A model generated the notes under the pieces. That model did no database searches and was not told the DNA's origin. It saw only the letters and a program-made list of their open reading frames with translations. A stretch of DNA of 64,000 bases from Escherichia coli (GTDB lineage: Bacteria > Pseudomonadota > Gammaproteobacteria > Enterobacterales > Enterobacteriaceae), in the NCBI RefSeq assembly GCF_050920415.1, contig NZ_CP169309.1, one strand, 5' to 3'. Shown one piece after another: positions 31,945 to 46,741 of this stretch. Position 1 is the first letter of the stretch; the number at the start of each line of letters is the position of its first letter. A program made the translations under genes and the position numbers.

Positions 31945-31959
31945 TACATGTTGTAGCAA

Positions 31960-31994
31960 CCCCGTACTGATTATGAAGAATAGTCAGTACGGGG
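31960..31994 (+). terminator. Hairpin downstream of gss
   Basis: 11-bp stem ccccgtactga / tcagtacgggg with 13-nt loop, followed by A/T-rich sequence. Confidence 0.4.
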
Positions 31995-32235
31995 ATTAAT
32001 CAAAATATTCAATATTTATATATTTCAATGTCTATTCATTTTATATGTGAATATATCAACCAGCAGAATACCTGTGTTCTAATTATTTTTAAATATTTTG
32101 AATGAATGCTTATTGTCTGATACACAAGAAATAACTCTCTTTTTATCGTTAAAAGATGATATTTCACTTTGCCCGCGCCGTGAAAGTCACTGATAATGCG
32201 TTCGTTCGTAAATTCAAAATGGCGTAATCTAATAT

Positions 32236-34476: not shown

Positions 34477-34649
34477 GAATATATCCTTAAATTTAAATAT
34501 CCATCCAAAATATTTATTTGGTTAATATGTTTTTATGAAAGCGTAATTCAGGTCAATGTCACAATTAACCATTGTCACAATAAGGTTGAACGGATATTCT
34601 GAGCACGGACCACGTAATATTCAATACATTATTTGCTGCCGGGTTTTTC

Positions 34650-36197: not shown

Positions 36198-37547
36198 TTG
36201 GCGGGGTTTAACATCAAACATTGGTTTGCAGATGGCGCGTTTCGCACCATTATTCGCAATAGCGCCTGGTTAGGCTCCAGTAATGTCGTGAGCGCTTTGC
36301 TGGGTCTGTTGGCGCTCTCGTGTGCCGGTAAAGGGATGACGCCCGCCATGTTTGGCGTACTGGTGATTGTGCAATCGTACGCCAAGTCGATCAGCGATTT
36401 TATTAAGTTTCAGACATGGCAGCTGGTGGTTCAGTACGGAACGCCAGCCTTGACCAATAATAATCCGCAGCAATTTCGCAATGTCGTCTCATTTTCCTTC
36501 TCGTTGGATATCGTCAGCGGCGCGGTGGCGATTGTCGGCGGCATTGCCTTACTCCCTTTTCTTTCCCATTCATTAGGTCTGGATGACCAAAGCTTTTGGC
36601 TGGCAGCGCTGTATTGCACGCTCATTCCTTCAATGGCTTCCTCCACACCGACCGGCATTCTGCGTGCAGTAGATCGCTTCGATTTGATTGCTGTACAGCA
36701 GGCGACGAAACCTTTTCTGCGCGCAGCGGGGAGCGTCGTAGCCTGGTATTTTGATTTTGGTTTTGCGGGTTTTGTTATTGCCTGGTACGCATCGAATCTG
36801 GTTGGCGGCACCATGTACTGGTGGTTTGCCGCGCGCGAATTACGCCGCAGAAATATCCATAACGCCTTCAAATTGAATCTGTTTGAGTCTGCCCGACACA
36901 TTAAAGGCGCGTGGAGTTTTGTCTGGTCAACCAACATTGCCCACTCCATCTGGTCGGCACGTAACTCGTGCAGCACAGTGTTGGTGGGGATCGTGTTAGG
37001 ACCCGCTGCCGCCGGGTTATTTAAAATCGCCATGACATTCTTCGATGCCGCCGGAACGCCAGCGGGTTTACTGGGCAAAAGTTTTTACCCAGAGGTGATG
37101 CGTTTAGATCCGCGTACCACCAGACCGTGGTTGTTAGGCGTGAAGTCCGGTTTACTGGCGGGCGGAATCGGTATTCTGGTGGCGCTCGCGGTGTTGATCG
37201 TCGGCAAGCCGCTCATTTCGCTGGTGTTTGGCGTTAAGTATCTCGAAGCGTATGACCTGATTCAGGTGATGCTTGGCGCAATTGTGATTTCGATGCTGGG
37301 CTTCCCACAGGAGTCATTGCTATTGATGGCGGGAAAACAGCGCGCTTTTCTCGTGGCGCAAACCATCGCCTCAATCGGCTACATCGTATTGCTGTTCATG
37401 TTCTGTCATCTGTTTGGCGTGCTGGGGGCTGCATTTGCTTACTTCGGTGGGCAATGTCTGGATGTGGTGCTCTCGTTAATTCCAACCTTAAAGGCATTTT
37501 TTCAGCGCCATTCCTTGCTTTATAACGCAGCCGGAGAGAAATCCTGA
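36198..37547 (+). CDS. yghQ: Polytopic inner-membrane protein, MOP/Wzx-like flippase family (putative lipid or polysaccharide flippase)
   Basis: 449-aa hydrophobic ORF; ORF-track start is TTG, so true start uncertain; synteny with yghRST. Confidence 0.75.
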   Translation: MAGFNIKHWFADGAFRTIIRNSAWLGSSNVVSALLGLLALSCAGKGMTPAMFGVLVIVQSYAKSISDFIKFQTWQLVVQYGTPALTNNNPQQFRNVVSFSFSLDIVSGAVAIVGGIALLPFLSHSLGLDDQSFWLAALYCTLIPSMASSTPTGILRAVDRFDLIAVQQATKPFLRAAGSVVAWYFDFGFAGFVIAWYASNLVGGTMYWWFAARELRRRNIHNAFKLNLFESARHIKGAWSFVWSTNIAHSIWSARNSCSTVLVGIVLGPAAAGLFKIAMTFFDAAGTPAGLLGKSFYPEVMRLDPRTTRPWLLGVKSGLLAGGIGILVALAVLIVGKPLISLVFGVKYLEAYDLIQVMLGAIVISMLGFPQESLLLMAGKQRAFLVAQTIASIGYIVLLFMFCHLFGVLGAAFAYFGGQCLDVVLSLIPTLKAFFQRHSLLYNAAGEKS

Positions 37548-38371
37548 TGATGAGAAAATATTTCCCGCTTGAGGCGAGCGAGCGTCTATTTATTGCAGTT
37601 GAAGAAGATGATGTCGTTGATGCGCAGGTCAGTTTACCGCCGACTATCGCAACAGGTTGTACCACCGAAATCATTCATGATAATTACGCGTTATGCCTGC
37701 AATTCTGGCTGAATGGCGTTGATCGTCAGGAATTACTGCGTTTAATCCACAAACAAGCCAAAGGCGAGGGGCTTACGGCTGACGAGCGTAAACAGTTTAA
37801 ATATATGCGGGCGCGTTATAAGCATCTACGTTTTGCCCAACGGTTGTATTTAAAAAAGCATCAGGCCGGATTTTTATTTGGCAAAACGACCGTTTTTCTT
37901 GGACGTTTTCAGGACGGCTTTCGTAACGGTAAGAAAAATATTGTGTCGTTTTACGGCAACCTTTTACGGATTTATTTAAGCTCTCCGGTCTAGTTGTTGG
38001 TGAACTATTCATTACGCCATAGCCAGTTAGAAAGCGTAAGCGGTTTTATTGCCTATCGGCAAAAGCAAATGCACCTCCTGAAAGAGATTATTGCCAAACC
38101 ACGGCTAACTGGCAGGGAATTTCATGATGTACGAAAAATAATCAGCCAGCAGGTTTCTTATTACGACACCCTAAGATCGCTTGATCCTGAAAATAAAGAA
38201 GCGTTACAGATTTCCCGCTTCCTCGCCGCCATTAATGGCCTGATGGGGGATAAACACGACGACATGGTGGCGGATGATATGGAAAACCGCCAGTCGTATG
38301 ATGCACCGATGGCGCTGGATAGCGATATTCGTCAGCGCTTAGAACTGCTGATTTCGCGTTTTCCGCTATAA
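37547..38371 (+). pseudogene. Hypothetical protein reading frame (275 codons) interrupted by a single in-frame TAG at 37991-37993; either a nonsense pseudogene or two adjacent ORFs
   Basis: ORF-track ORFs 37547-37993 and 37994-38371 are in the same frame and contiguous; start ATG overlaps the yghQ stop (TGATG). Confidence 0.4.
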
Positions 38372-38379
38372 CCGGAGCA

Positions 38380-38943
38380 ATGATGTCATCTCGTTTGATT
38401 ATTGCGCTGATTATCATGCTCTTAGCCCCGGGTGTGCAGGCGCACAATTTCGTCACTGGTAAAACGGTTACCCCTGTTTATATCCAGGAAGGCGGCGAGC
38501 TGCTTCTGAATAGCGACGACGAAATTCACTACCAAAAGTGGAACAGCACACAGCTGGCGGGAAAAGTCCGCATTATTCAGTATATCGCCGGGCGTAAGTC
38601 GGCGAAGAAAAAGAACTCACTGTTAATTAAAGCGGTTGAAGCGGCAAACTTTCCGCAGGATCGTTTTCAGCCCACCACCATTGTGAACACCGATGATGCC
38701 ATCTTTGGTACTGGCTATTTTGTCGTTGGCAAAATCGAAAAAAATAAACGCCGCTATCCGTGGGCGCAATTCGTTATTGACGGCAATGGACAGGGACGCG
38801 TTGTCTGGCGGTTGCCGGAGCAGAGTTCAACCATTCTGGTGCTGAATAAAGCCGGGCAAATTCAGTGGGCAAAGGACGGCAGCCTGACGCCGGAAGAGGT
38901 AGATCATGTCATTGCGCTGGCGCAGAAGCTGATCAATGAATAA
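38380..38943 (+). CDS. YtfJ-family periplasmic protein (signal peptide)
   Basis: 187-aa ORF; N-terminal signal MMSSRLIIALIIMLLAPGVQA; resembles E. coli YtfJ as I recall it. Confidence 0.6.
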   Translation: MMSSRLIIALIIMLLAPGVQAHNFVTGKTVTPVYIQEGGELLLNSDDEIHYQKWNSTQLAGKVRIIQYIAGRKSAKKKNSLLIKAVEAANFPQDRFQPTTIVNTDDAIFGTGYFVVGKIEKNKRRYPWAQFVIDGNGQGRVVWRLPEQSSTILVLNKAGQIQWAKDGSLTPEEVDHVIALAQKLINE

Positions 38944-38973
38944 AAAACTCAAAGGATTGAGGGCGTTAGTGAG

Positions 38974-40044
38974 ATGAAGCTGGTTGAACACTACATCATG
39001 CGTGGTACGCGCCGTCTGGTGCTGATTATCGTCGGTTTTCTGATCTTTATTTTCGCCAGCTACTCCGCACAGCGTTATCTGACCGAAGCGGCAAATGGGA
39101 CATTAGCTCTTGATGTTGTGCTGGATATTGTTTTCTACAAGGTGCTGATTGCACTGGAGATGTTGTTACCTGTTGGACTGTATGTGTCAGTTGGCGTGAC
39201 GCTAGGGCAGATGTATACCGACTCGGAAATTACCGCTATTTCTGCGGCGGGGGGGAGTCCGGGACGCTTGTACAAAGCCGTTCTTTATCTGGCGATACCG
39301 CTAAGTATTTTTGTCACCCTTCTGTCGATGTATGGTCGTCCGTGGGCTTATGCGCAGATTTATCAACTGGAGCAACAGTCGCAGTCGGAGCTGGATGTTC
39401 GCCAGTTGCGGGCAAAGAAATTTAACACTAACGATAACGGACGAATGATCCTTTCGCAGACGGTTGATCAGGATAATAATCGCCTGACTGACGTGCTGAT
39501 TTATACTTCTACTGCCAATCGAACCCGTATTTTCCGCGCCCGTTCGGTTGATGTAGTTGACCCATCACCCGAGAAACCGACCGTTATGTTGCATAACGGG
39601 ACCGCCTATCTTCTCGATCATCAGGGGCGTGACGACAACGAACAGATCTACCGTAATCTGCAATTGCATCTGAATCCGCTGGATCAAAGCCCTAACGTCA
39701 AACGCAAAGCAAAATCGGTCACGGAGCTGGCGCGCTCCGCCTTTCCTGCCGATCATGCCGAACTGCAATGGCGACAAAGCCGTGGCCTGACAGCATTGTT
39801 GATGGCGCTGCTGGCCATTTCATTAAGTCGGGTAAAACCGCGGCAAGGGCGATTTTCAACGTTATTGCCACTGACGTTGCTGTTTGTTGCCATTTTTTAT
39901 GGCGGCGACGTCTGCCGTACGCTGGTGGCTAACGGCGCGATTCCCCTCATTCCTGGTTTGTGGTTAGTACCCGGACTCATGCTAATGGGCCTGCTGATGC
40001 TGGTCGCACGCGACTTCTCTTTGCTGCAGAAATTTTCCCGATGA
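38974..40044 (+). CDS. LptF-like permease (YjgP/YjgQ family) paralog
   Basis: 356-aa ORF; N-terminal TM then large periplasmic segment then C-terminal TMs, the LptF/LptG architecture. Confidence 0.7.
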   Translation: MKLVEHYIMRGTRRLVLIIVGFLIFIFASYSAQRYLTEAANGTLALDVVLDIVFYKVLIALEMLLPVGLYVSVGVTLGQMYTDSEITAISAAGGSPGRLYKAVLYLAIPLSIFVTLLSMYGRPWAYAQIYQLEQQSQSELDVRQLRAKKFNTNDNGRMILSQTVDQDNNRLTDVLIYTSTANRTRIFRARSVDVVDPSPEKPTVMLHNGTAYLLDHQGRDDNEQIYRNLQLHLNPLDQSPNVKRKAKSVTELARSAFPADHAELQWRQSRGLTALLMALLAISLSRVKPRQGRFSTLLPLTLLFVAIFYGGDVCRTLVANGAIPLIPGLWLVPGLMLMGLLMLVARDFSLLQKFSR

Positions 40045-41120
40045 ATGTTTTCAGTCGCTATTTAATTCGTCATCTCTTTCTCGGTTTTGCCGCCGCCGCA
40101 GGGCTATTGCTGCCGCTCTTTACCACCTTCAACCTGATTAACGAACTGGATGATGTCAGCCCGGGTGGTTATCGCTGGACTCAGGCGGTGCTGGTGGTGC
40201 TGATGACCTTACCGCGCACACTGGTCGAACTTTCGCCGTTTATCGCCTTATTGGGAGGGATTGTCGGCCTGGGGCAGTTATCGAAAAACAGTGAGCTTAC
40301 CGCCATTCGCAGCACGGGGTTTTCTATCTTCCGTATTGCACTGGTGGCGCTGGTTGCCGGGATATTGTGGACTGTTTCATTAGGCACGATAGATGAGTGG
40401 GTGGCGTCGCCATTGCAGCAACAGGCGCTGCAAATCAAATCGACTGCCACTGCGTTGGGGGAGGACGATGACATTACCGGCAATATGCTGTGGGCCAGGC
40501 GTGGTAATGAATTTGTGACGGTGAAATCGCTGAACGAGCAGGGCCAGCCGGTGGGCGTGGAGATATTTCATTACCGCGACGATCTCTCGCTCGAATCCTA
40601 CATTTATGCACGCAGTGCCACCATTGAAGACGACAAAACGTGGATCCTGCATGGTGTGAATCATAAAAAATGGCTGAATGGCAAAGAAACGCTGGAAACA
40701 TCTGATAATCTTGCCTGGCAATCGGCCTTCACCAGTATGAATCTTGAAGAGTTATCGATGCCGGGAAATACTTTTTCTGTCCGTCAACTTAATCATTACA
40801 TCCATTATTTGCAGGAAACCGGGCAACCCAGCAGCGAATACCGCTTTGCACTGTGGGAAAAACTGGGACAACCCATCTTGACCCTTGCGATGATTTTGCT
40901 GGCTGTGCCGTTTACCTTTAGTGCCCCGCGTTCGCCTGGGATGGGTAGCCGTCTCGCTGTAGGCGTCATCGTGGGGTTACTCACCTGGAGCAGCTATCAA
41001 ATCATGGTCAATCTGGGATTGCTATTTGCGTTGAGCGCACCTGTTACCGCGCTCGGTTTACCGATAGCGTTTATGCTGGTGGCGTTGAGCCTGGTGTATT
41101 GGTATGACAGTCAACATTAA
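40041..41120 (+). CDS. LptG-like permease (YjgP/YjgQ family) paralog
   Basis: Start at ATGA overlap with upstream gene (MNVFSRYLIRHL); same architecture; 359 aa. Confidence 0.7.
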   Translation: MNVFSRYLIRHLFLGFAAAAGLLLPLFTTFNLINELDDVSPGGYRWTQAVLVVLMTLPRTLVELSPFIALLGGIVGLGQLSKNSELTAIRSTGFSIFRIALVALVAGILWTVSLGTIDEWVASPLQQQALQIKSTATALGEDDDITGNMLWARRGNEFVTVKSLNEQGQPVGVEIFHYRDDLSLESYIYARSATIEDDKTWILHGVNHKKWLNGKETLETSDNLAWQSAFTSMNLEELSMPGNTFSVRQLNHYIHYLQETGQPSSEYRFALWEKLGQPILTLAMILLAVPFTFSAPRSPGMGSRLAVGVIVGLLTWSSYQIMVNLGLLFALSAPVTALGLPIAFMLVALSLVYWYDSQH

Positions 41121-41154
41121 ACCCGCCGTGGCGCAGCACCACAGCGGGCTCACA

Positions 41155-42327
41155 TTACTGCTTCAGAGTAGCAAATGCCTGAATGATGGCATCGATTTGC
41201 TCACGAGTGTGGGCAGCGTTTACGCTACAGCGCAGCAGCGTGATGCCTGCAGGCGCGGCAGGTGGCAGGATAAGATTCACATAAACGCCCAGCGAAATAA
41301 GCTCGCGCCAGATGCGTAAACCTTCCTCTTTCGAACCGATTATTACTGGCACTACCGGGCTAATATGTGAACTTAACTCGTAACCCAGTTTTTGCAGACC
41401 GTCATACAGATGGCTGGCGTTATCCATCAGCTTTTGCCGCAACTCTGGTTGTGAGGCAATGGTTCTTAACGACGAGCGCACGGTCGCAATGCAGGACGGA
41501 GAAGGAGAGGCGGTAAAAATATACGGGCGGCTGCCGTAGCGCAGCACTTCCATCGCTTCCGAACCGACAGCAAAACCGCCAATCGAGGCCAGACTTTTAC
41601 TGAAAGTACCAACGATAATATCCACATCATCTTCAACGCCAACGGCTTCAGCCAGTCCGCGCCCCGTTGCGCCTAACACGCCAAACGAATGCGCTTCATC
41701 GACAATCAAATAACCACCGAGACGACGTTTGATATCAACAATTTCCGCCAGCGGCGCAACGTCACCGAGCATACTGTAGATGCCTTCAACGATGATAATC
41801 GCCTCTTTTGCCCGTTCACCGAGGCGAACCATGCGCCGTTCCAGATCTTTAGCATCGTTATGGCGGAAACGAATAATTTCCGCTCCACCGAGAGAACAGG
41901 CGTCATAAATACTGGCGTGGCTATCGGCATCCAGTAACACCACGGCGTTATGGTCGGCAAGTGCGCTGATGACACCTAAATTAGCGGTATAACCGGTTGA
42001 AAAAACGATAGCGGTAGGGCGATTGAAAAACTCGGCAATCTCTTTCTCTAACGCCAGATGTGGCGCATAGCTGCCATTAGCCATACGAGAACCGGTAGTG
42101 CCGGTGCCTTGTGCCGCTAATGCTGCCTGACCTTCGGTGATGGCATCATGATTGAAAGTTAAACCGAGATAATTATTAGTCCCGGCCAGAATCACTTTTT
42201 TATTGCCGATACGGCCTTCAGTGGCGGAGTACACTTCATCAATACAGGTACCAAACGGCGTTAATCCGTTGTCACTAAATTGCAGTCGCTCGCCAGCAAG
42301 GCGCGCATATTTATCGTATAGCCCCAT
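41155..42327 (-). CDS. PLP-dependent alpha-oxoamine synthase (serine palmitoyltransferase / BioF / Kbl family)
   Basis: 390-aa ORF; conserved VDEAHSFGVLG and PLP-lysine GTFSKSL motifs. Confidence 0.8.
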   Translation of the reverse strand: MGLYDKYARLAGERLQFSDNGLTPFGTCIDEVYSATEGRIGNKKVILAGTNNYLGLTFNHDAITEGQAALAAQGTGTTGSRMANGSYAPHLALEKEIAEFFNRPTAIVFSTGYTANLGVISALADHNAVVLLDADSHASIYDACSLGGAEIIRFRHNDAKDLERRMVRLGERAKEAIIIVEGIYSMLGDVAPLAEIVDIKRRLGGYLIVDEAHSFGVLGATGRGLAEAVGVEDDVDIIVGTFSKSLASIGGFAVGSEAMEVLRYGSRPYIFTASPSPSCIATVRSSLRTIASQPELRQKLMDNASHLYDGLQKLGYELSSHISPVVPVIIGSKEEGLRIWRELISLGVYVNLILPPAAPAGITLLRCSVNAAHTREQIDAIIQAFATLKQ

Positions 42328-42575
42328 TATTTATTCTCCAGCCATGGAAGTAGAGTTTCCATTAATTGCGCAGGGGTTTTGACATCCAGCAGAATATTAA
42401 TAGGAATGGAAATATCGAATCTGTCTTCCAGCATCATTAAGAGATCCATCACTTTGATCGACTCCAGGCCAAGATCGTTGACGAGATCGCTGTCGGGCTT
42501 AATTTCCACACCGTTTTCGACCAAATCCTGTAAACAGGAAAGGATGTAATCCATTACTATTTCACGATTTACCAT
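42327..42575 (-). CDS. Acyl carrier protein (dedicated, not housekeeping acpP)
   Basis: 82-aa acidic ORF with phosphopantetheine-attachment-like motif DLGLESIKVMDL. Confidence 0.75.
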   Translation of the reverse strand: MVNREIVMDYILSCLQDLVENGVEIKPDSDLVNDLGLESIKVMDLLMMLEDRFDISIPINILLDVKTPAQLMETLLPWLENK

Positions 42576-42606
42576 AGAAACGTTAACACACCTTTAAACA
42601 AGACAA

Positions 42607-43521
42607 TCAAAATAGCCCGCTGCGTAATGCGTGTTCCAGGCTAATCCCGGGAAACCAATTAATATCTTCAGAAATACGGTTATTACTTGCTGACCAGTCG
42701 GCGTGGGTTAATTCACGGATTTTCGAGCGGGTCAGCATAGGTTCTTTACCTGCCAGGCGACTCAACGCGGTACTGATATCCGCAAGGCAGGTGAGTACCG
42801 ACAGAGGAATACCAACCATTCGAACGGAACCGCAACGGGCGTCGGCGGCAAGTTGCTGTACGCGTTGCCAGTCATAGCCGCCGGCGACGCCATCGCATAA
42901 TTCATAGGTTTGCGTTTGTACAGTTTCGGCGCTTAACCACTGCCCCACGGCTTGCGCGAAATCGGTGACGTGCAGGAAAGAGAGCTGTGTATCTGGCGCA
43001 CCAAGTCGTGGCAGCAGGCCGCGCAGCATCCAGCCAAACAGCGGTTTTAACTCTTTATCGCCGGGACCATACACGGCTGTCGGGCGAAAAATGCCCAGCG
43101 TAATTTCGTCAGCCATTGCGGTCAGTCGTTGTTCGGCGACGTGTTTGGAATTTGCGTACCAGGAGAGTTCGGGATGGCGCGCCGCCAGCGAAGAGATAAA
43201 CAGAAAACGTTGGCAAAAGCCGCTCTCTTTTGCCGCTTGCATCAGGCGCAGGCTGCCGTCAACGTTACAGCGGGTAAAAATCTCTTCTTTGTGTCCGCGC
43301 ACTTGCCCGGCGCAATGGACCACCGCGCTGGCTCCGGCAACCAGTTCGCTAAGCGAATGTGTATCTTCCAGCGAACCGCGCACCCAGATGAGATTATCAT
43401 TGACGTGAGCGCGGGCAGTACGCGTCAATGCGCGAACGTGAAAGCCGCGGGCGAGCAGGTTATCGATAATATATTTACCGATAAACCCGGTAGCGCCCGT
43501 CACCGCGACAGTTTGATTCAT
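42607..43521 (-). CDS. NAD(P)-dependent epimerase/dehydratase-family (extended SDR) oxidoreductase; candidate 3-keto reductase
   Basis: 304-aa ORF; N-terminal Rossmann motif VTGATGFIG. Confidence 0.75.
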   Translation of the reverse strand: MNQTVAVTGATGFIGKYIIDNLLARGFHVRALTRTARAHVNDNLIWVRGSLEDTHSLSELVAGASAVVHCAGQVRGHKEEIFTRCNVDGSLRLMQAAKESGFCQRFLFISSLAARHPELSWYANSKHVAEQRLTAMADEITLGIFRPTAVYGPGDKELKPLFGWMLRGLLPRLGAPDTQLSFLHVTDFAQAVGQWLSAETVQTQTYELCDGVAGGYDWQRVQQLAADARCGSVRMVGIPLSVLTCLADISTALSRLAGKEPMLTRSKIRELTHADWSASNNRISEDINWFPGISLEHALRSGLF

Positions 43522-45236
43522 GCCATGGATTCCTGCACATGAAGGCTTGCAGCATAACGTTTTTTCGCTTCCGCACGGGCAGGCTTGCCGGAGGACGTTC
43601 GGGGAATACTGTGGGGCGGCAACAGATCGATAGCCGCTGTTACGCCAAATTCGCTTTGGATCCGTGCTGCCAGTGCGTGGATAAGCTGCCCACGACGTTC
43701 TTCGTCGCTGATCCTACACTGGATCTGCAAAATGATTTTTTCCTGGGCGGTAACAAAAGCAATCGCATCGCCAGAATGAATTTCCGGTTCCTGTTCCGCA
43801 ATATATTCAATATCCTGCGGCCAGATATTACGGCCACGAATAATAATCAGATCTTTAATGCGCCCGGTGACATACAGATAACCATCCAGCAGATAACCGA
43901 GGTCGCCGGTATCTAACCAGCCCGTCGCGGCAATCTCGTCTTGCGAAACCTGGTCGCCAAAGTAACCGCTCATCAGGCTGGGGCCGGAGATGCAAATATG
44001 GCCTACCACACGTTCCGCGACCGGCATACCTGCTTCATTGCGGATTTCAATGCCATGTTCCGGCAACGCTTTACCGCAGTTGACGAAAGTCGATACGGCG
44101 CGTGTTTCAGCACCCGGCGCGACGGCTTTGCCCTGATATTCAAGGATGTCGCGATCCACTTCGTTAACCACAACCCCGGAGGCTTCATCAGAGAAGCTGA
44201 CAGCCAGCGCATTTTCTGCCAGTCCGTAGCACGGCATGAAAGTTTTATCGTCAAAGTTAACCTGACGGAAACATTCAGCAAATTGGTGGAGTTGTTCTGC
44301 GGAGATGGGTTCTGCGCCAATACCAGCGACGCGCCAGCACGAGAGATCCAGTTCAGCGAGATCTTTTTCATTCACGCGGCGCTGACACAATTCATAGCCA
44401 AACGGCGGCGCGACGGAAACTGTGCCACGATTTTTACTGATCAATTTAAGCCATTGCAGCGGACGCATGGCAAAATCCTGAGTGCGCAAATAATCTACTG
44501 AGAGCTGCGTGGCGACGGGGGTCAGGAGAAAGCCGACCAGTCCCATATCATGGTAGAAAGGCAGCCAGGAGACGCAGCGGTCGCCAGGGCGTAATTTAAT
44601 GCCATCGTGGCTTATAGCACGTAGATTAGCCATCACTTCGCGATGGGTGATAATGACGCCACGGGGAAAACGGGTGCTGCCGGAGGTGTACTGGAGGTAG
44701 GCGATATCGTTCGGAACTGGACGCTGGAGTACAACATCGGCTTCCGGTAATGCCTTAAACCAGGCGTGGCTTAAAACATGTAATTCGGGGTTGTTATGCG
44801 TAGCAGCATTGACCAGTGGCAACCACTCATCACCAGTGATAATGGCTGCGGGCTGGCAACTAGCCAGTAAACCTTGCAGTTTAGCGCTCCAGGAATCCCG
44901 CTGACCGACGCCCATTGGAATCGCTAACGGGACGGCGACTAAGCCGGCATACTGGCAGGCAAAAAAAGCCTCTACAAACCCGCTACTCGTTTCGGCAATC
45001 AGCGCCACGCGATCGCCTTTTTTCAGATTTAGTGATAACAACCGCTTCGCACCAGCTTCGGCACACGCTTTTAACGTCTGATATTCCAGTTGATCTTCAA
45101 GTTGGCAACGTCTGTCATAAAAATTCATTCCGGCGCTACTCAGAGCGGCGTAGTCCAAAGCATCAACCAGCGTTGGAAAATCGGCATAGCGCATAGGTAG
45201 GGAATGCGTAAAGATGTTATTAGACATATACACCAC
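43518..45236 (-). CDS. Fatty acyl-AMP ligase / acyl-ACP synthetase (AMP-binding superfamily)
   Basis: 572-aa ORF; AMP-binding signature YTSGSTRFPRGV; overlaps downstream reductase gene by 4 nt. Confidence 0.8.
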   Translation of the reverse strand: MVYMSNNIFTHSLPMRYADFPTLVDALDYAALSSAGMNFYDRRCQLEDQLEYQTLKACAEAGAKRLLSLNLKKGDRVALIAETSSGFVEAFFACQYAGLVAVPLAIPMGVGQRDSWSAKLQGLLASCQPAAIITGDEWLPLVNAATHNNPELHVLSHAWFKALPEADVVLQRPVPNDIAYLQYTSGSTRFPRGVIITHREVMANLRAISHDGIKLRPGDRCVSWLPFYHDMGLVGFLLTPVATQLSVDYLRTQDFAMRPLQWLKLISKNRGTVSVAPPFGYELCQRRVNEKDLAELDLSCWRVAGIGAEPISAEQLHQFAECFRQVNFDDKTFMPCYGLAENALAVSFSDEASGVVVNEVDRDILEYQGKAVAPGAETRAVSTFVNCGKALPEHGIEIRNEAGMPVAERVVGHICISGPSLMSGYFGDQVSQDEIAATGWLDTGDLGYLLDGYLYVTGRIKDLIIIRGRNIWPQDIEYIAEQEPEIHSGDAIAFVTAQEKIILQIQCRISDEERRGQLIHALAARIQSEFGVTAAIDLLPPHSIPRTSSGKPARAEAKKRYAASLHVQESMA

Positions 45237-45598
45237 GAAAAAAATTGGATATCAGAAATAAAATGACAATAATGCGGTGGATTATATAGGCATAAAAGAT
45301 AAATGAGATAGTATTTTCATCGGTGCGATATTGAACATTGATTTAAATAATAGGTTTGGCTTTGTTGTTTTTATTGTGAATTATATTTAATTTATGAATA
45401 TATTAAGAAGAAGCCTTGTTTGGTTGCCTTAAATCGACAAAAGGCATTGAGGCGCTTCTGTGTAGTCTCTGACCTTATCTTAATTATTAATAAATACTAT
45501 TTATTCTTTGTTTGTATTCTTTGGGTTGATTATTAAGATGCCGTTCGTTGCTGTTGCAATCTGTTTGTCACCGTTAATTATTTGTTATCCACAGAGAT
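45237..45598. promoter_or_regulatory. AT-rich divergent promoter region between the acyl-AMP ligase operon and yghO
   Basis: 362 bp, visibly AT-rich with multiple A/T tracts; flanked by divergently oriented start codons. Confidence 0.45.
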
Positions 45599-46741
45599 AT
45601 GGAATGCGATCTGCTGATGATTAAAATTGAAAAAGTAATTAATAAAAATGACCTTAAGGCATTTATCGCTTTTCCGTCATCACTTTATCCCGATGATCCA
45701 AACTGGATACCCCCTTTGTTCATTGAACGCAGCGAGCATTTGTCGGCGAAGAATCCGGGGACGGACCATATTATCTGGCAGGCGTGGGTAGCAAAAAAAG
45801 CGGGGCAGATAGTCGGGCGGATTACCGCGCAAATCGATACCTTGCACCGCGAGCGTTACGGTGACGATACCGGTCATTTCGGCATGATTGACGCCATTGA
45901 TGATCCGCAGGTTTTTGCCGCGTTGTTTGGCGCAGCGGAAGCGTGGTTGAAGTCACAAGGTGCAAGTAAGATCAGCGGGCCTTTCAGCCTGAATATCAAT
46001 CAGGAAAGCGGATTACTGATTGAAGGTTTCGACACTCCGCCCTGTGCGATGATGCCGCACGGTAAACCGTGGTATGCCGCGCATATTGAACAATTGGGTT
46101 ATCACAAAGGTATTGATTTACTGGCGTGGTGGATGCAACGAACCGATCTCACTTTCTCTCCGGCGCTAAAAAAACTGATGGATCAGGTGCGCAAAAAGGT
46201 GACCATTCGCTGCATCAAGCGCCAGCGGTTTGCCGAAGAGATGCTGATCCTGCGTGAGATTTTCAACTCTGGCTGGCAGCACAACTGGGGATTTGTGCCG
46301 TTTACCGAACATGAATTCGCTACCATGGGCGATCAACTAAAGTATCTGGTACCGGACGATATGATCTACGTCGCCGAGATTGATTCTGCTCCCTGCGCGT
46401 TTATAGTCGGCTTGCCGAACATCAACGAGGCGATTGCCGATCTGAACGGAGCGCTCTTTCCCTTCGGCTGGGCAAAATTGCTGTGGCGCTTAAAAGTCAG
46501 CGGTGTGCGAACTGCGCGAGTGCCGCTGATGGGCGTGCGTGACGAGTATCAGTTCAGCCGCATCGGCCCGGTGATTGCGCTGTTATTGATTGAAGCCTTA
46601 CGCGATCCGTTTGCTCGCCGGAAGATCGATGCGCTGGAAATGTCATGGATCCTCGAAACCAATACAGGCATGAATAACATGCTGGAACGCATTGGAGCGG
46701 AGCCGTACAAGCGTTACCGATTGTATGAAAAGCAGATTTGA
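45599..46741 (+). CDS. yghO: YghO, intact; putative GNAT-like acyltransferase (family assignment tentative)
   Basis: 380-aa uninterrupted ORF; synteny next to glcC; K-12 yghO is an annotated pseudogene as I recall. Confidence 0.7.
   Translation: MECDLLMIKIEKVINKNDLKAFIAFPSSLYPDDPNWIPPLFIERSEHLSAKNPGTDHIIWQAWVAKKAGQIVGRITAQIDTLHRERYGDDTGHFGMIDAIDDPQVFAALFGAAEAWLKSQGASKISGPFSLNINQESGLLIEGFDTPPCAMMPHGKPWYAAHIEQLGYHKGIDLLAWWMQRTDLTFSPALKKLMDQVRKKVTIRCIKRQRFAEEMLILREIFNSGWQHNWGFVPFTEHEFATMGDQLKYLVPDDMIYVAEIDSAPCAFIVGLPNINEAIADLNGALFPFGWAKLLWRLKVSGVRTARVPLMGVRDEYQFSRIGPVIALLLIEALRDPFARRKIDALEMSWILETNTGMNNMLERIGAEPYKRYRLYEKQI

Follow-up and report, generated by a model that had tools for sequence, protein, structure and literature searches.

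Sphingolipids are not considered part of the biology of Escherichia coli, and host-signalling roles are known for them in gut Bacteroides. The window analysed here, a whole stretch of 64,000 nucleotides (64 kb) from E. coli contig NZ_CP169309.1 (assembly GCF_050920415.1), includes two divergent units that together carry the five genes of a ceramide pathway. The gap between these units is the only obvious control point of the pathway, which the majority of E. coli strains carry, BL21, Nissle 1917 and many pathogens among them. The enzymes are active when over-expressed, but no product of the native locus is seen in the laboratory. The question raised by the locus is what holds it back. If it were known whether occupancy by H-NS/StpA, the lack of an activator or a combination of the two is responsible, there would be a way to induce the pathway, and with an inducible pathway the question of E. 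coli sphingolipids in the gut or the environment would become testable. The first-pass annotation, made from the sequence alone, had described the gap as a typical target for silencing by nucleoid proteins of the H-NS type, and had proposed that the lipid locus may be silent under laboratory conditions.

The ceramide locus and its expression in the laboratory

The genes of the locus, and the region that they share, are as follows.

41155-42327, minus strand: spt, serine palmitoyltransferase (matches the equivalog NF047599 with 599.6 bits; cutoff 500)
42327-42575, minus strand: acpR, acyl carrier protein (annotation and ACP match; PMC9386255)
42607-43521, minus strand: epi, a CerR-like SDR/epimerase-type reductase (PGAP annotation and SDR match; PMC9386255)
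43518-45227, minus strand: aasR, fatty acyl-AMP ligase (a specialised acyl-ACP synthetase) and first leftward gene (matches NF006624 with 871 bits, cutoff 600; homologue of ECD_02851)
45228-45598, no strand: AT-rich shared upstream region, from aasR to yghO (GC 0.299; no in-frame conserved ORF, no Rfam match and no unusual RNA fold)
45599-46741, plus strand: yghO (aca), putative sphinganine N-acyltransferase of the bacterial ceramide synthase type (annotated as YghO; function by homology only)

Serine palmitoyltransferase (SPT), a dedicated acyl carrier protein, an acyl-ACP synthetase, a reductase and an N-acyltransferase are all clustered at this locus, which corresponds to the rhodobacterial-type ceramide gene set. 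A profile search with YghO gave no Pfam or NCBIfam match. In BL21(DE3), the cluster ECD_02850-02854 was described by Padilla-Gomez et al. 2022 (PMC9386255) as aca/yghO, aasR, epi, acpR and spt; the AcpR, AasR and SPT proteins of this strain were characterised biochemically, and the same study names yghO as aca, by homology with Caulobacter CC_1154 (PMC9386255). The locus in the window matches ECD_02850-02854 gene for gene, and BL21(DE3) has the same arrangement with an intergenic region that is 91.5% identical. The first-pass annotation had correctly placed an acyl-AMP ligase operon (minus strand, 43518-45227 or 45236) divergent to yghO (plus strand, 45599-46741). It was also right to see in the gap a divergent control region that serves a lipid locus, and this locus can be named as the sphingolipid/ceramide cluster aasR-epi-acpR-spt / yghO (aca). 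There is no intervening gene between aasR and yghO, and it is near certain that the gap is the regulatory region of both units. An AT-rich divergent promoter region is in itself an ordinary kind of feature.

The annotated start codons of both flanking genes are possibly mis-set. In other genera, yghO begins at a Met aligned with codon 7 of the E. coli gene (ATG at 45617), and in place of the in-frame GTG at 45236, upstream of the PGAP start of aasR, the genera Citrobacter, Hafnia and Pseudocitrobacter have ATG (MVYMS...). At the other end of the cluster, the spt operon is adjoined by convergent genes (38974-41120) encoding LptF/LptG-like permease paralogues, a YtfJ-family protein and YghQ, a flippase-like 'LPS biosynthesis protein', and these neighbours hint that the lipid made by the pathway may have an export route of its own.

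Published data on BL21 bear on the expression of the cluster. Cells of BL21(DE3) pLysS carrying the empty vector, grown in complex medium at 30 °C, were without sphingoid products, including 3-oxo-sphinganine, and over-expression of SPTEc alone in BL21(DE3) left the lipid profile unchanged (PMC9386255). Extracts of BL21(DE3) with the empty vector had zero SPT activity even with palmitoyl-AcpR as substrate (PMC9386255). Given the lack of both SPT activity and sphingoid products in BL21, functional expression of aasR, acpR and spt from the chromosome is absent under these conditions, and the proposal that the locus is silent in the laboratory thus has published support.

Nevertheless, when 3-oxo-sphinganine was made in BL21, sphinganine-like and ceramide-like spots appeared, 'possibly by intrinsic enzymes' (PMC9386255), which would mean some basal expression of epi or yghO. 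These compounds, possibly formed via chromosomal epi and yghO, are what could be expected if the locus were not silent, with both units under low constitutive transcription and the AT-rich region serving as a long 5' leader and promoter without special repression. The locus has been kept intact, together with the full region, in ~75% of the complete genomes of E. coli (4093 of 5426), which also argues for use. However, the missing SPT activity of BL21 extracts and the absence of sphingoid products with either the empty vector or SPTEc alone speak against a locus that is not silent, as do the promoter matches described below, which are weak only. Constitutive expression of this kind is considered improbable.

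Composition, distribution and conservation of the intergenic region

Measured from the in-frame GTG start of aasR, as in the first-pass annotation, the gene-free gap (45237-45598) is 362 bp long and has a GC content of 29.6%. With the PGAP start of aasR (ATG at 45227), it extends over 371 bp (45228-45598) with a GC content of 29.9%, and the GC content of the whole window is 51.1%. The description of an AT-rich gap of about 360 bp was therefore borne out, the region falling in the lowest 0.4% of segments of its size (0.42% of all 371-bp segments in the 64 kb are equally AT-rich). Only three loci in the window reach this AT level, namely gss/pitB, the aasR/yghO gap and glcA/sslE. When the 24 annotated intergenic regions that measure 60 bp or more are ranked by AT-richness, the aasR/yghO gap comes second, and it is the longest divergent one. 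The median intergenic GC content of the window is ~0.43. The gss/pitB (31945-32235) and yghT/yghS (34477-34649) gaps are similarly AT-rich, with GC contents of 0.30 and 0.31, respectively. In both, Lang-type H-NS motifs are denser than in the aasR/yghO gap, and they may be better H-NS candidates.

The gap contains 16 runs of at least 6 bp made up of A and T only, the longest being 17 bp, and TpA steps occur at 0.105 per bp as compared with 0.045 across the window. Repeated A/T tracts, also claimed at first pass, are thus present in the sense of frequent A/T runs and a high TpA content, but the runs are mixed and are not helically phased A-tracts. The AT trough covers ~0.4-0.5 kb, and the GC content is below 0.42 only at ~45100-45800. 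The genes on either side of the gap have a GC content of 0.51-0.52. For the coding sequences of the cluster the range is 0.41-0.55 (41% for acpR and 51-55% for the others), and hence the genes are not xenogeneic-looking.

In K-12-type strains, an IS5 element is associated with a deletion of ~36198-45639, which extends from the 3' part of yghQ to codon ~14 of yghO (first ~40 bp) and removes the intergenic region. Eight genes are affected: the 3' end of yghQ, a hypothetical gene, the ytfJ-like gene, the lptF/lptG-like gene, spt, acpR, epi and aasR. The right junction of the deletion lies inside the AT-rich 5' end of yghO. Because the region is lost through this IS5-linked deletion, K-12 cannot supply H-NS data on it. 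In O157:H7 Sakai (NC_002695.2, 3852167-3876852), the interval from pheV to a truncated pitB is absent and SpLE3 occupies the site; glc, yghO, the sphingolipid cluster and the neighbours of sslE are gone with that interval. As neither K-12 nor O157:H7 Sakai has the locus, the two best-studied E. coli lineages are uninformative on the region, and their lack of the pathway may explain why it has been overlooked.

Several individual occurrences are recorded here as separate observations. The window is chromosomal, and strain MFDS1022581 matches it with 100% identity across the query. The atypical O157:H7 strain LSU61 retains the intergenic region. The allele found in the window is rare, with at least 99% identity in 15 of 4539 genomes, and its presumed aasR leader has an A7 run at 45238-45244, which is one A shorter (A6) in BL21 and in eight other Escherichia sequences. 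One of ~4150 occurrences of the intergenic region is in a record typed as a plasmid. A 430-bp low-coverage contig from the assembly of a Gram-positive bacterium, Macrococcus sp. DPC7161, is 99% identical to E. coli yghO and is almost certainly assembly contamination.

When one genome per species was scanned, a yghO homologue beside a divergent aasR was detected in Shimwellia, Citrobacter amalonaticus, Pluralibacter, Pseudocitrobacter and Serratia, and also in Klebsiella indica, Cedecea, Hafnia and a Pseudomonas MAG. The divergent arrangement is thus conserved in 19 loci from Escherichia and nine other genera. Shimwellia pseudoproteus DSM 3038 has two yghO paralogues, of which one (82% identity) is beside aasR; within 4 kb of the second (73% identity), aasR, epi and spt are all absent. 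The orthologous gaps are 270-806 bp long, and their GC content is 11-25 points under that of the flanking genes, being at least 17 points under both in most loci. In 18 of the 19 loci, the gap holds the 250-bp segment of lowest GC content within ~9 kb. The gaps of different genera gave no alignment outside the neighbourhoods of the start codons, and a cross-genus search for a shared operator, conducted with 12-mers in nine genera, reached 20 mismatches in total at best, where shuffled sequences gave 19-24. As the trough is kept and no 12-mer is common beyond the level of shuffles, it is the composition of the gap that is conserved and not its sequence. Conservation of composition only could reflect the requirement of a composition-reading protein such as H-NS, and generic constraints on promoter DNA could also produce it.

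Candidate promoters and other elements

Within Escherichia, the gap was examined in a nine-sequence alignment, in which the sequence of the window is joined by four further E. coli strains, SCPM-O-B-8794 (labelled E. coli), E. whittamii and two further Escherichia species. Pairwise diversity in the aasR-proximal ~100 bp (about 45223-45322) is 0.01-0.04, as compared with 0.12-0.16 for third codon positions in the two flanking genes and 0.12-0.33 in most of the remaining gap, where low-diversity islands are found at 45383-45402 (0.053) and 45483-45502. The same asymmetry is seen on a larger scale: the 118-bp proximal block (45228-45345) has at least 95% identity in 2561 of 4145 genomes, and the distal 118-bp block in only 79 of 4127. 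As judged by these diversity values, the ~100 bp beside aasR is under purifying selection, which is a new finding of this analysis. Rather than uniform AT filler, the region thus consists of a selected promoter, operator or leader block on the aasR side joined to a fast-evolving yghO side.

The conserved block and the candidate promoter elements in the gap are given below.

45228-45322, minus strand: aasR-proximal conserved block, presumed to hold the aasR promoter, 5' UTR and any operator (low Escherichia diversity)
45281-45286, minus strand: candidate aasR -10 element TATAAT (own PWM scan; perfect consensus match)
45304-45309, minus strand: candidate aasR -35 element ATCTCA (3/6 matches; 17-bp spacer to TATAAT)
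45376-45404, plus strand: candidate yghO promoter GTGAAT-17-TATATT (best plus-strand PWM score; overlaps the island at 45383-45402)
45376-45381, plus strand: candidate yghO -35 element GTGAAT (kept in 8/9 Escherichia sequences)
45399-45404, plus strand: candidate yghO -10 element TATATT (kept in 7/9 Escherichia sequences)
45573-45587, plus strand: ArcA-like direct repeat GTTAATTATTTGTTA, 12 bp ahead of the start codon annotated for yghO (differs from the consensus at two positions; a lead only)

The sigma-70 PWM was an own scan with approximate literature frequencies, and the promoter positions are predictions. The best PWM totals were modest in both directions. A sigma-70 consensus scan of the gap found one weak plus-strand site, as compared with 3.4 ± 1.9 in shuffled sequences, and missed the aasR promoter candidate because its -35 element is poor. 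Both elements of that candidate are invariant in all nine Escherichia sequences. An invariant TATAAT together with a poor -35 element suggests an activator-dependent aasR promoter. For yghO, the candidate promoter implies a 5' UTR of ~190 nt.

Consensus scans of the gap for regulators and sigma factors gave no site standing out for sigma-54, sigma-E, sigma-32, sigma-28, CRP, FNR, Fur, PhoB or PhoP, and likewise none for FadR, IHF, Lrp, Fis, RcsB, CpxR or OmpR. The ArcA-like repeat has a single-test p of ~0.016, which is not significant after the ~18 motifs tried, and its first GTTA is ATTA in three of the nine Escherichia sequences.

The perfect and invariant -10 element with its poor -35, and the 100-bp block under purifying selection, are what a specific promoter and operator would predict. 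They favour an explanation in which the gap holds ordinary activator-dependent divergent promoters with no meaningful role for H-NS, and both units are off because the promoters are weak and the activator or its signal is absent. The AT-richness would in that case reflect UP-like elements, easy melting, sites for specific regulators and the relaxed composition of non-coding DNA. On the other hand, there is no regulator gene in the cluster, and the neighbouring glcC belongs to the glycolate system. The GC content of 30% is far under the intergenic median and equals that of a proven H-NS target nearby, and the trough is conserved across genera by its composition rather than by sequence, with no common operator-like motif. 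The conserved block beside aasR and the candidate promoters provide concrete targets for further work.

A gap of 371 bp is long for E. coli, and its counterparts in Serratia, Pluralibacter, Shimwellia and Klebsiella indica measure up to 700-800 bp, so the region was also considered as one that might encode a small protein or an sRNA, or contain a riboswitch-like leader or what is left of a mobile element. An Rfam search over 44500-46500 gave no match at E up to 1, and RNA folding showed nothing unusual for the putative leaders of aasR (z = -0.63) and yghO (z = +0.30). The ORFs in the gap are only 20-38 aa long and none is conserved; a 28-aa hydrophobic upstream ORF (45538-45624) is disrupted in other alleles, where indels of 5 and 7 nt occur and its ATG is changed to GTG. 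The 700-800 bp gaps of Serratia and Shimwellia likewise contain only unconserved ORFs of 30-48 aa. No terminator-like site was found in the gap, and the region occurs once per genome (median of one place), hence it is not a repeat element. Each of these results weighs against a hidden element, which is regarded as very improbable.

Three sequence features were also rejected. A direct repeat, GTGRATTATAT, occurs twice, 99 bp apart, and a second TATAAT is present on the minus strand; the second copy of each is confined to the allele of the window, and both are thus attributed to chance. A hairpin GCCTT...AAGGC (45426-45445) falls where the sequences vary most, and shows no conservation.

H-NS and StpA at the locus and comparison with known systems

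The AT content of the gap is far above that typical of the genome (GC 0.299 as compared with 0.511 for the window) and matches that upstream of sslE, a validated H-NS/StpA target. Other features of H-NS targets are less evident. The high-affinity H-NS motif tCGATAAATT (Lang 2007, PMC2094087) is not enriched, with 6 sites at up to 3 mismatches in the gap against 9.3 ± 3.1 expected from its composition, and no near-consensus nucleation site is present, the best match in the gap having 2 mismatches. There is no A-tract phasing, the 10.5-bp periodicity of AA/TT in the gap being no better than in 75% of composition-matched shuffles. A wedge model predicts one intrinsic bend.

45250-45350, no strand: predicted intrinsic bend centred at ~45300 (wedge-model ratio 0.859; rest of the region straight)

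The end-to-end/contour ratio of 0.859 compares with a mean of 0.954 (sd 0.031) for the window and falls in the lowest 1.2% of 125-bp segments. The positive control for the wedge model was the region upstream of sslE, which at 0.769 was the second most curved place in the 64-kb window, in agreement with the BEND-IT statement on the sslE promoter (PMC5012682).

The extent of the trough is also below the tract length of more than 1 kb that was associated with true silencing in the K-12 ChIP-seq study of Kahramanoglou et al. 2011 (PMC3064808). In that study, H-NS regions shorter than 1 kb upstream of operons were considered 'gentler modulators', and only 40% of the target genes of short regions changed in an hns mutant (PMC3064808). 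In the literature covered, no report ties H-NS to yghO or the cluster, with no ChIP or hns-mutant data for the locus, and the part of the supplements of the ETEC H10407 ChIP-seq paper that was covered includes CRP sites only. The presence of IS5 at the AT-rich 5' end of yghO in the K-12 lineage is circumstantial evidence for H-NS, as IS5 favours AT-rich, H-NS-bound DNA according to a passage of PMC11677980 citing Cooper 2024.

A typical H-NS silencing target is thus a plausible description of the aasR/yghO gap. The claim is favoured by composition, which equals that of the sslE region, and weakened by the lack of motif enrichment, of phasing and of a long tract and by the host-like GC content of the genes; curvature is modest and local. 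Occupancy of the gap by H-NS in vivo is rather likely. That H-NS is the main cause of the silence of the locus is doubtful. The lack of motif enrichment and phasing, the modest curvature, the short tract with host-like flanking GC and the observation that short H-NS patches are often without transcriptional effect (PMC3064808) are consistent with promoters that depend on an activator only, and this explanation, though not the preferred one, is a serious possibility.

The explanation preferred here, with a probability of about 0.5, is that the gap is a shared bidirectional control region in which weak, probably activator-dependent promoters and a short upstream patch of H-NS/StpA together keep both units low. 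Leftward transcription would start from the activator-dependent aasR promoter with its invariant TATAAT and poor -35 element, and rightward transcription from the weak yghO promoter ~190 nt upstream of the gene. Both would be low in the laboratory through intrinsic weakness combined with H-NS/StpA on the AT tract, acting as a short patch as at sslE, and an activator or environmental cue would relieve the repression. From the combined analysis, such a patch is probably bound and would contribute to the laboratory silence.

A stronger version, in which the AT trough acts as an H-NS/StpA switch and the whole ceramide pathway is thereby held in a cryptic state in some three quarters of the strains of E. 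coli, is unlikely. If it were true, removal of H-NS or a natural anti-silencing cue would lead to sphingolipids made by E. coli.

The classical silenced loci, bgl, proU, LEE and the SPI islands, have AT tracts of more than 1 kb that reach into genes and/or defined high-affinity nucleation sites, and IS5 activates bgl in K-12. The aasR/yghO locus resembles these loci (bgl, proU URE/DRE, LEE and SPI islands) in its AT-rich upstream DNA, in being cryptic in the laboratory and, as for bgl, in the association with IS5. It differs in that the genes of the cluster have a GC content of 51-55% (acpR 41%) and in that no near-consensus nucleation site is present.

The five-gene set of spt, acpR, epi/CerR, aasR and aca/bCerS is also clustered in Caulobacter crescentus (CC_1154 and CC_1162-CC_1165). 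This likeness is one of gene content and not of the control region. Caulobacter is not known to have H-NS. Among the Rhodobacteria surveyed in PMC9386255, all five genes were found together only in Caulobacter and E. coli BL21.

Closer to the gap are the short ('S') H-NS regions of K-12 (PMC3064808), which are likewise AT-rich patches of less than 1 kb upstream of operons with flanks of ordinary GC content, and resemble the site of a conventional repressor rather than a silencing filament. Membership of this class requires measured occupancy, and the aasR/yghO gap is deleted in K-12.

The promoter region of sslE (yghJ), which precedes the T2SS-beta operon at 56189-56682, 11 kb away, is experimentally shown to be under H-NS control, and the comparison with the aasR/yghO gap is one of sequence features only. 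In ETEC, H-NS and StpA bind the sslE region and repress in a temperature-dependent manner, and sslE is derepressed in hns mutants of UPEC UTI89 and EC958 (PMC5012682); yghJ is also listed as an H-NS target by Lang 2007 (PMC2094087). The sslE region differs from the aasR/yghO gap in being longer (494 bp), in having more A-tracts (15 as compared with 6) and a higher density of Lang-type motifs (2.8 as compared with 1.6 per 100 bp), in its stronger curvature (0.769 as compared with 0.859) and in its tandem rather than divergent arrangement. However, the two regions have nearly the same GC content (0.29 and 0.30, respectively) and an equal TpA frequency of 0.105 per bp, and both lie upstream of an accessory operon that is absent or decayed in K-12, that of sslE being envelope-related.
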